Part shown: one piece after another, positions 1 to 1,349 of the stretch
How positions within the stretch are numbered: the stretch's first letter is position 1
Layout: each line of letters starts with the position of its first letter
Origin: a bacterium
GTDB taxonomy: Bacteria > UBA8248 > JACPRG01 > G963555815
Assembly: GCA_963555815.3 (NCBI GenBank)
Contig: CAUVWX020000002.1
Coordinates: forward strand, 64,001-128,000
DNA length: 64,000 bases
Direction of reading: 5' to 3'
Notes under the pieces: model-generated
What the model saw: only the letters and a program-made list of their open reading frames with translations
The model's database searches: none
What the model was told of the DNA's origin: nothing
Position numbers and translations under genes: made by a program

Positions 1-543
1 ACGGGCGAGGACAATGCCTCTGGCGATCTGCCGAGCGTAGCGCTCCTCACCGTAGGTGCGCAGGATATCAGTCAGTTCTTCCGCCGAAAGGTCCCGCACC
101 AGGTCCTCTGCTTTCCTCTCCTGGCGCTGGTCCATGCGCATGTCCAGAGGGCCGGGACGCCTAAAGCTGAACCCCCGCTTTCCATCCTCTACAAGAGGGG
201 ACGATAGGCCGAGGTCGAAGAGGATTCCCTGCACGGAAGGGACCCCGGCCTCCGCGAGAAGCTGCGTCAGGGCGGAGAAGTTCCCCCGGATGAGGGTCAC
301 CTGTTGACGGAAAGGGTCTAAACGTTTTAGGGCTGCCGAGATCGCCTGCCCGTCGCAGTCAAACCCGATGAGCCGAATGCCTGACCCTCCAGCCTGCAAC
401 AGGGCCTCCGCGTGGCCCCCGTAGCCGACCGTGGCGTCCACGAGGACGCCCCCTCGGCCGGGCTCCAGGAGGCGGCATACCTGCTCTAGCAGGGCAGGGC
501 GGTGATCCTCACCATGGCCCTCAAAGCGCTCCCCGGAAGACAT
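1..543 (-). CDS. rsmH: 16S rRNA (cytosine1402-N4)-methyltransferase RsmH/MraW, partial (runs off the window edge)
   Basis: Manual translation MSSGERFEGHGEDHRPALLEQVCRLLEPGRGGVLVDATVGYGGHAEALL... with DLGLSS further on; GGAGGAG RBS at 553-559; downstream of mraZ. In-frame upstream ATGs at 564 and 609 are alternative starts. Absent from the ORF track. Confidence 0.93.
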   Translation of the reverse strand, partial: MSSGERFEGHGEDHRPALLEQVCRLLEPGRGGVLVDATVGYGGHAEALLQAGGSGIRLIGFDCDGQAISAALKRLDPFRQQVTLIRGNFSALTQLLAEAGVPSVQGILFDLGLSSPLVEDGKRGFSFRRPGPLDMRMDQRQERKAEDLVRDLSAEELTDILRTYGEERYARQIARGIVLAR

Positions 544-647
544 CAGGGGGGGCTCCTCCAGCATTGGATCTAGAGTGGCTTGTGCGCTGTTATGCTGAAG
601 AGTATTCATCCCTCTCGATCCTTCGTCGAGAGCGCGTGCGCCCGGGT

Positions 648-809
648 CTAAAAGGCCGGCACAACGCTGTTCAAGAAGGTTGGGAGACGACCTCCCAATA
701 TGTTCAACGCAACGATGGCGCCCAGTGCCACGACTGAAATGAGGAAAACGTACTCCACCAGCCCCTGGCCCTCATCATTCCTCAACCACCCTGAAATTCT
801 TCTCCACAT
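648..809 (-). CDS. flp: Flp family (type IVb/IVc) pilin, 53 aa
   Basis: Manual translation MWRRISGWLRNDEG/QGLVEYVFLISVVALGAIVALNILGGRLPTFLNSVVPAF*: prepilin cleavage Gly, E+5/Y+6 Flp motif, hydrophobic helix; AGGAGG RBS at 823-828. Below the ORF-track size cutoff. Confidence 0.88.
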   Translation of the reverse strand: MWRRISGWLRNDEGQGLVEYVFLISVVALGAIVALNILGGRLPTFLNSVVPAF

Positions 810-836
810 CTCTTCTCTTCCCCCTCCTGAAAGGAG

Positions 837-1274
837 TTAAAACCCTATCCCTGAGGATTCGGCGATATCTTCGAGCCTTCCCCGAGAGGCCTCCAAGGTC
901 TTTTGCCACCGTCCTTTGCTCCAGACCTCTATCTTGTTCCCGACCCCGACCACGACGACCTCCTTCTCCAGCCCGGCCTCGCGCCTGAGAACCTCGGGGA
1001 TGAGGATTCGACCCTGACGGTCCAGGGGGCAGTCCGCCGCGTTGGCATAGAAGACCCTCACAAAGGTCCTGACATCCCTACGGCTGGTTGGAAGTTCCCG
1101 CGCCTTTCGCTCCACTTCGTGCCACTCGTCAAGGGGATAGGCGACGATGCAGCCGTCAAATAGGGTGAGGACGAGCTGCGTGAGGGAACGGCCGTTCAAG
1201 ACGTCACGGAATTTAGAAGGGATACTGAGCCTTCCCTTGGGGTCGAGGGTAAGCTCGTATTTGCCCAAAAACAT
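837..1274 (-). CDS. mraZ: Division/cell wall cluster transcriptional repressor MraZ
   Basis: MFLGKYELTLDPKGRLSIP and LDRQGRILIP give the two DxxGR motifs; start moved from 1349 to the ATG at 1274. Confidence 0.97.
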   Translation of the reverse strand: MFLGKYELTLDPKGRLSIPSKFRDVLNGRSLTQLVLTLFDGCIVAYPLDEWHEVERKARELPTSRRDVRTFVRVFYANAADCPLDRQGRILIPEVLRREAGLEKEVVVVGVGNKIEVWSKGRWQKTLEASRGRLEDIAESSGIGF

Positions 1275-1284
1275 GGAGAATACC

Positions 1285-1320
1285 TCCACTCCTTCCCACT
1301 TTGGCCCATTTTTCACCCAA
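1285..1320 (-). promoter_or_regulatory. MraZ operator (dcw boxes)
   Basis: Minus strand reads TTGGG-TGAAAA-ATGGG-CCAAA-GTGGG-AAGGA-GTGGA, i.e. TGGG repeats at ~10 bp period just upstream of mraZ. Confidence 0.85.
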
Positions 1321-1349
1321 ATTATTGACTCCTCTCCTACCCTTGTCAA
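1321..1349 (-). promoter_or_regulatory. Sigma70-type promoter of the dcw operon
   Basis: Minus strand TTGACA-N17-AATAAT, directly abutting the MraZ boxes. Confidence 0.8.

Follow-up and report, generated by a model that had tools for sequence, protein, structure and literature searches.

We found that a gene for a Flp-type prepilin is inserted between mraZ and rsmH, on the same strand as both, in the dcw cluster of an uncultured bacterium and of its only congener. We consider it reasonably probable that this gene is a promoter-less flp duplicate which was captured by the mra promoter, and that its product, after processing in trans by the only CpaA, serves as a secondary pilin. The features at this junction are collected in Table 1, with positions in the window, by which we mean the whole stretch of 64,000 nucleotides that was analysed. 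An initial annotation had described a 53-residue Flp prepilin here and this was confirmed, the ORF being intact and its neighbours matching the NCBIfam models TIGR00242 and TIGR00006, both above their cut-offs. Of the span of 648-839 that had been assigned to the gene, 648-809 is the ORF, and the remainder consists of the 27 nt separating the flp start from the mraZ stop, and of that stop codon itself (839-837); the mraZ start, an ATG at 1274, was placed by alignment with relatives. The gene had also been thought to be missed by ORF calling, but the NCBI and ENA collections already contain the exact protein as a called gene, and standard callers catch it. In the DNA run X6 one contig spans 512-3400 with 10 differing letters, which places the mraZ-flp-rsmH arrangement in a further assembly. 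Our survey covered 51 genomes of the GTDB phylum, 49 of them with an mraZ match; G000 denotes this genome and G001 its only congener.

Table 1. Features at the mraZ-flp-rsmH junction, in window coordinates
Feature	Position	Strand	Basis or remark
rsmH, 5' part	1..609	-	TIGR00006, 165.9 bits
7-bp inverted repeat 3' of flp	612..632	-	no U run, z 0.25
flp, Flp-type prepilin gene, 53 aa	648..809	-	intact 53-codon ORF
Flp motif G14-QGLV-E19-Y20, predicted peptidase cut after G14	750..770	-	sequence
Shine-Dalgarno-like AGGAGG of flp	823..828	-	ends 13 nt before ATG (10 nt in G001)
CTCCT directly 3' of mraZ stop	832..836	-	predicted pairing with flp SD; kept in G001
mraZ, 145 aa	837..1274	-	PF02381, TIGR00242 (141.5 bits) above cut-off
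Three RTGG boxes (ATGG, GTGG, GTGG), 10-nt period, MraZ-type operator	1286..1309	-	consensus match
Sigma-70-type promoter TTGACA-17-AATAAT, 11/12	1321..1349	-	sole one in 500-1700

The flp product consists of a 14-residue leader (MWRRISGWLRNDEG) and a predicted 39-residue mature pilin (QGLVEYVFLISVVALGAIVALNILGGRLPTFLNSVVPAF), and about 20 hydrophobic residues follow the G14-QGLV-E19-Y20 motif, so that a short leader, a GXXXXEY motif and a hydrophobic helix are all present. GXXXXEY is the defining motif of Flp (type IVc) pilins (PMC10934763), and across 13 aligned Flp sequences G14, Q15, G16, L17, E19 and Y20 were invariant. The Flp_Fap profile (PF04964) matched the dcw Flp over 44 of its 46 positions at 15.3 bits (E 0.017), but this lies below the cut-off of 32.2; the pilin of the tad cluster itself scores just 32.1 bits, which indicates that the cut-off is strict for this lineage. 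Since the Class_IIIsignal score (16.8 bits, cut-off 23.7) was likewise sub-threshold and the NCBIfam profile search of the dcw Flp gave no match, the family assignment rests on the motif and the paralogs. Among the class-wide matches the best paralog was the tad-cluster Flp (51% over 51 residues, E 2e-13). Besides the two clusters of the dcw Flp itself, a protein search returned two PF04964 proteins, 52% and 48% identical, that carry the name 'pilus assembly protein Flp/PilA', and the Atlas neighbours listed, at a score of 0.90, comprised one Flp-named cluster, one with Flp_Fap in 17% of its members and one unnamed. A PDB sequence search yielded chance matches only, and single-sequence AlphaFold2 gave a helix over residues 2-52 (pLDDT 81.8, pTM 0.47), a result of low specificity. 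The protein is small, with a single predicted helix and no globular head, and it is predicted to be cleaved by a peptidase and may polymerise into a pilus. It resembles the Flp/Fap pilins such as Aggregatibacter Flp1 and Caulobacter PilA in its 53 residues, its short charged leader, its motif and its helix, and also in that a cognate Tad machine and peptidase are present in the genome. It differs from them in its sub-threshold Pfam score, its divergent mature region and the position of its gene, which stands outside the tad locus and has no consensus promoter of its own.

The only consensus promoter in 500-1700, a stretch for which shuffled sequences give a mean of 0.2 matches, stands before mraZ, and a TTGACA occurs at a similar position before mraZ in the relatives compared. 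GTGG-type boxes with 6-nt spacers at the mraZ promoter constitute the MraZ operator (PMC12957436; bioRxiv 2022.02.09.479790), and boxes of this kind, which are expected of a member of the MraZ regulon, were found at 1286-1309. A whole-genome scan with a relaxed triple box gave 4 matches, one of them the mraZ promoter; across the phylum, triple boxes occur at 44 and double boxes at all 47 of the mraZ promoters counted, the other 2 of the 49 having been dropped because a contig end cuts their upstream region. The locus is like the mra/dcw head described in the same two reports, with its TTGACA promoter, its three boxes repeating every 10 nt and its gene order from mraZ and rsmH through ftsI to ftsZ, and it is unlike the usual head in carrying a 53-codon pilin gene after mraZ and ATGG instead of GTGG as its first box. 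Beyond rsmH the dcw genes continue outside the window in the standard series, the whole order being mraZ, (flp), rsmH, ftsI, murE, murF, mraY, murD, ftsW, murC, murB, ftsA and ftsZ, while the ORFs at the ftsL, murG and ftsQ positions gave no match at E 1e-10. For rsmH two starts on the minus strand are candidates, 609 and 543; the latter has the better SD, and the amino acids of the first 15 codons from 609 are unchanged in G001.

Within 300 bp upstream of flp we found no consensus promoter, and nothing resembling a promoter or a terminator was seen between mraZ and flp or between flp and rsmH. The inverted repeat 3' of flp was rejected as a terminator for want of a U run and of significance (Table 1), and an Rfam search of 480-1560 returned no family. 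A single consensus promoter with three boxes before mraZ, together with the lack of a terminator between the genes, makes it likely that flp is co-transcribed with mraZ and rsmH from the mraZ promoter and that MraZ represses it. The promoter search used the sigma-70 consensus, so departing promoters would escape it, and this counts against the captured duplicate. The RNA runs X1 and X2 contain 0.10 and 0.04 of the words, with no contig over flp or mraZ and with 86 nt of rsmH as the sole organism-like piece, and they have no bearing on expression. At the level of sequence, the proposal that pilin supply is tied to the division genes agrees with the absence of an own promoter, the boxed mraZ promoter, the absence of a terminator, the retention of the gene in G001 with few amino-acid changes and the existence of Tad genes in this genome. 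The larger proposal, MraZ-controlled Tad pilus production, was not upheld: the tad cluster carries an flp gene of its own, a double MraZ box was found upstream of none of the 4 other flp genes (300 bp, both strands), at most one divergent pilin of five would be under the mraZ promoter, and the arrangement occurs in 2 of 49 genomes. Boxes precede neither the tad cluster nor the other pilins, and control of pilus production by MraZ is unsupported.

The pilin gene is alone only locally, for the genome holds five Flp matches, the dcw flp and four others, and one tad cluster (G000:C2:373034-382888) about 310 kb from the dcw flp. As the initial annotation had noted, the window contains no tad genes; consistent with this, tblastn of ten tad-cluster proteins against the whole genome matched at C2:373-383 kb only, with no second copy. 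By names assigned from Pfam families, the cluster comprises flp, the CpaA peptidase, TadE, CpaB, a secretin-N/RcpC protein, a secretin, TadG-like, TadZ-like, TadA, TadB and TadC; TadD/CpaO and RcpB/CpaD were not among the genes recognised by this search, which is not specific to them. PF01478, the A24 prepilin peptidase family, has one match in the genome, in the tad cluster. Two further observations concern the machinery genes. Within the stretch L044:10528-13759 (minus strand), the 355-aa secretin-N/RcpC gene combines the N-terminal domain of a secretin with an RcpC/CpaB domain and is in parts about 52-54% identical to its two neighbours, an apparent chimeric duplication. In cpaA of G001 (L050, G001:C5) one base is missing from a run of G close to the start of the gene, either a real frameshift or an assembly error.

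The dcw flp is colinear with the flp of the tad cluster, with 108 of 162 nucleotides (67%) and 26 of 53 amino acids identical, and the similarity reaches into the RBS and a few bases beyond the stop, from which we infer that the dcw flp may have originated by duplication of the tad-cluster gene. In a tree of 34 Flp rows the dcw pair sits on a long branch (0.85) and the parent copy is not resolved, which speaks against the captured duplicate. A near-identical second copy of the tad-cluster flp lies on C1, and the C1 flp pair, in contrast to the dcw flp, shares with the tad locus its upstream region and a 39-aa ORF. This ORF, with one hydrophobic helix, a basic tail and an M[EG]IGT start, lies upstream of the tad-cluster flp (G000:C2 about 382975-383095, minus strand) and of the C1 pair (G000:C1 about 1243935-1244055, minus strand), and the same holds in G001 (L135, L136). 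A c-di-GMP-like riboswitch was considered for the region before the tad flp and rejected, since Rfam gave nothing significant there and most of the region encodes the 39-aa ORF. The upstream flp of the C1 pair (G000:C1:1243690-1243860, minus strand, L003) has GY for EY and no in-frame start and looks decayed; the corresponding locus of G001 holds three flp genes, one with a Gly/Pro/Arg-rich tail. A divergent orphan flp (G000:C1:929009-929176, minus strand, L004) is closely followed by a tRNA gene and carA; before carA G001 has only the 3' part of that tRNA, as after integration, and this flp was not found there. Among 34 flp loci of the phylum, a tad match lies within about 1.5 kb in 18 and none in 16, linkage being judged by tblastn with the proteins of this genome, a search that could overlook distant tad genes. 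Of the 16, several run across or stop at a contig edge, and 9, from 6 genomes, have full flanks. By this count orphan flp genes are common in the phylum.

The flp gene is conserved at the same mraZ-rsmH position in G001 (89% amino acid identity) but not in the other 47 of the 49 genomes. In these 47 only 80-136 nt lie between the mraZ stop and the conserved H-x-P-V motif of RsmH, which leaves no room for flp with its 162 nt; in G000 and G001, both with flp, the span is 332 and 338 nt. A metagenome scan with a family-level MraZ pattern found 3 loci of a sister genus, none with flp, although one ends about 125 nt past mraZ, with the RsmH motif already visible. Since flp occurs in G000 and G001 only and the gap is too short elsewhere, the insertion belongs to this genus, and within the surveyed phylum flp between mraZ and rsmH is, on these sequences, a genus-specific insertion; that only two species carry it counts against the captured duplicate. 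A GTDB scan with the dcw Flp peptide gave, among the matches listed, 3 ordinary flp loci in other phyla, and beside these no mraZ or rsmH was recognised among their ORFs. Within the same family, G003, G004 and G006 gave no flp, save for one match at E 0.8 in G006 that contains a stop, and G003 and G006 gave no A24 peptidase, which indicates that Tad pili are patchy in the family.

The ribosome-binding site of flp had been called strong. Its AGGAGG does pair well with the anti-SD, at a computed -10.5 kcal/mol, but it ends rather far from the ATG (13 nt) and folding predicts that pairing partly sequesters it, both of which count against the captured duplicate. When the five bases of the CTCCT next to the mraZ stop are covered, the predicted probability that the flp SD is unpaired rises from 0.35-0.45 to 0.91-0.96 in both species, and an SD-pairing arm of this type was found at 11 of 748 SD-like sites. 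These folding models offer hints, weak and found post hoc, that translation of flp may be coupled to mraZ through the CTCCT arm. Such an arm would suit a selected coupling, in which the position is retained because this pilin is a non-redundant subunit whose supply must track division-gene expression, and MraZ would indirectly gate or tune pilus assembly. The same holds for the position and frame of flp, kept in both species while the other flp copies vary (three at the pair locus in G001 vs two in G000, one of them apparently decayed), and for two precedents, the orphan flp4 that is essential for predation in Bdellovibrio (PMC5430801) and the timing of Caulobacter pilA by CtrA (PMC11264516). 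However, the tad cluster and the other pilins are without MraZ boxes, the insertion is absent from 47 of 49 genomes, many of which have flp genes, and published work presents MraZ as repressing its own operon and not as oscillating with the cell cycle (bioRxiv 2022.02.09.479790). Moreover, the 51-nt region of the CTCCT/SD hairpin has a z of 0.78, and in G001 the arm is predicted to pair only weakly with the SD (0.19) when a longer upstream context is free, and we regard a selected coupling as unlikely.

Between G000 and G001 the dcw flp differs by 3 synonymous and 7 nonsynonymous changes, a pN/pS of 0.76, compared with values of 0.14 in mraZ and 0.15 in the tad flp; with just 10 changes and low divergence at both site classes, this ratio by itself is no demonstration of constraint. 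Together with the long branch, it would fit a nearly neutral passenger, a duplicate in a tolerant junction that is weakly translated and slowly decaying, and so would the lowest Pfam score among the five Flp copies of the genome, the long SD spacing and the coming and going of flp copies within the genus. Yet amino-acid changes are fewer than the neutral rate predicts: 7 of 120 nonsynonymous sites are changed, where twelve other genes give a background pS of 0.142 (p 0.003). The mature part holds 3 changes in 85 sites against the same background (p 0.001), all three conservative (I/V, V/M and I/L), the leader accounting for the other 4 of the 7, and five alleles of the dcw flp keep the motif and the length without an indel or a stop, despite a 3-nt indel just upstream of the gene. 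These data lend modest support to purifying selection on the dcw flp, and a neutral passenger appears improbable. That the gene encodes a repurposed, pilin-derived single-helix membrane peptide, which acts on proteins of division or of the cell wall and has ceased to enter a pilus, is very unlikely. A divergent mature part with two prolines speaks for it, as does the location of the gene ahead of the ftsL position and ftsI in a dcw cluster that is otherwise ordinary. Against it, the cleavage motif and E+5/Y+6 are invariant, Flp paralogs of G050 and G040 (that of G050 being a tad-linked one) share one of the prolines at its C-terminal position, and the nearest Atlas clusters (0.90) include a Flp-named one.

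For the captured duplicate, we propose the following course. A divergent Flp copy would have landed between mraZ and rsmH, likely with little beyond its own RBS, and would since be transcribed, likely, from the division-operon promoter that MraZ represses. The prepilin is predicted to be cut by the single prepilin peptidase of the genome, CpaA, and the mature Flp may then join the lone Tad machine, encoded about 310 kb away, as a secondary pilin. MraZ control would be a consequence of the landing site, and the outcome would be a steady, growth-linked supply of one subunit and not a switch for pilus production.

An orphan flp gene under separate regulation is already known, and the dcw position was not found in print: our search of the open literature, as distinct from subscription papers, returned no report of a Flp pilin in the dcw/mraZ position. 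Bdellovibrio flp4 stands apart from the tad operon, is free of control by FliA and is non-redundant and required for predation, and flp3 is silent (PMC5430801); the Sinorhizobium orphan flp smc02446 is co-transcribed with an unrelated gene (PMC10934763). The dcw flp is like these genes in being a pilin paralog beyond the tad operon and under other control, and unlike them in that its host operon is the dcw cluster and its likely regulator MraZ, whose regulon in B. subtilis is essentially mraZ-mraW-ftsL-pbpB (bioRxiv 2022.02.09.479790). It also recalls Caulobacter, where a Tad pilin gene is linked to a division or cell-cycle regulator; that gene encodes the major pilin and is transcribed from a CtrA promoter of its own, with a timing shown by experiment (PMC11264516), whereas here a secondary pilin would have been captured in cis, as read from sequence.

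The reach of the finding is small, comprising two uncultured species and one of five pilin copies, with the pilus machine outside MraZ control. If the dcw flp is functional and on the mra transcript, a pilin would stand inside the MraZ regulon, a pairing that we did not find in the literature, and a simple insertion would have sufficed to tie a surface appendage to the division genes. We give little credence to the stronger form, that the division operon captured a non-redundant Tad pilin which is MraZ-repressed and translationally coupled to mraZ by a hairpin opened at the mraZ stop. Should it be true, pilus assembly or composition would follow division-gene expression, and this would be an independent one-gene route to the link between pilus and division that Caulobacter makes via CtrA.
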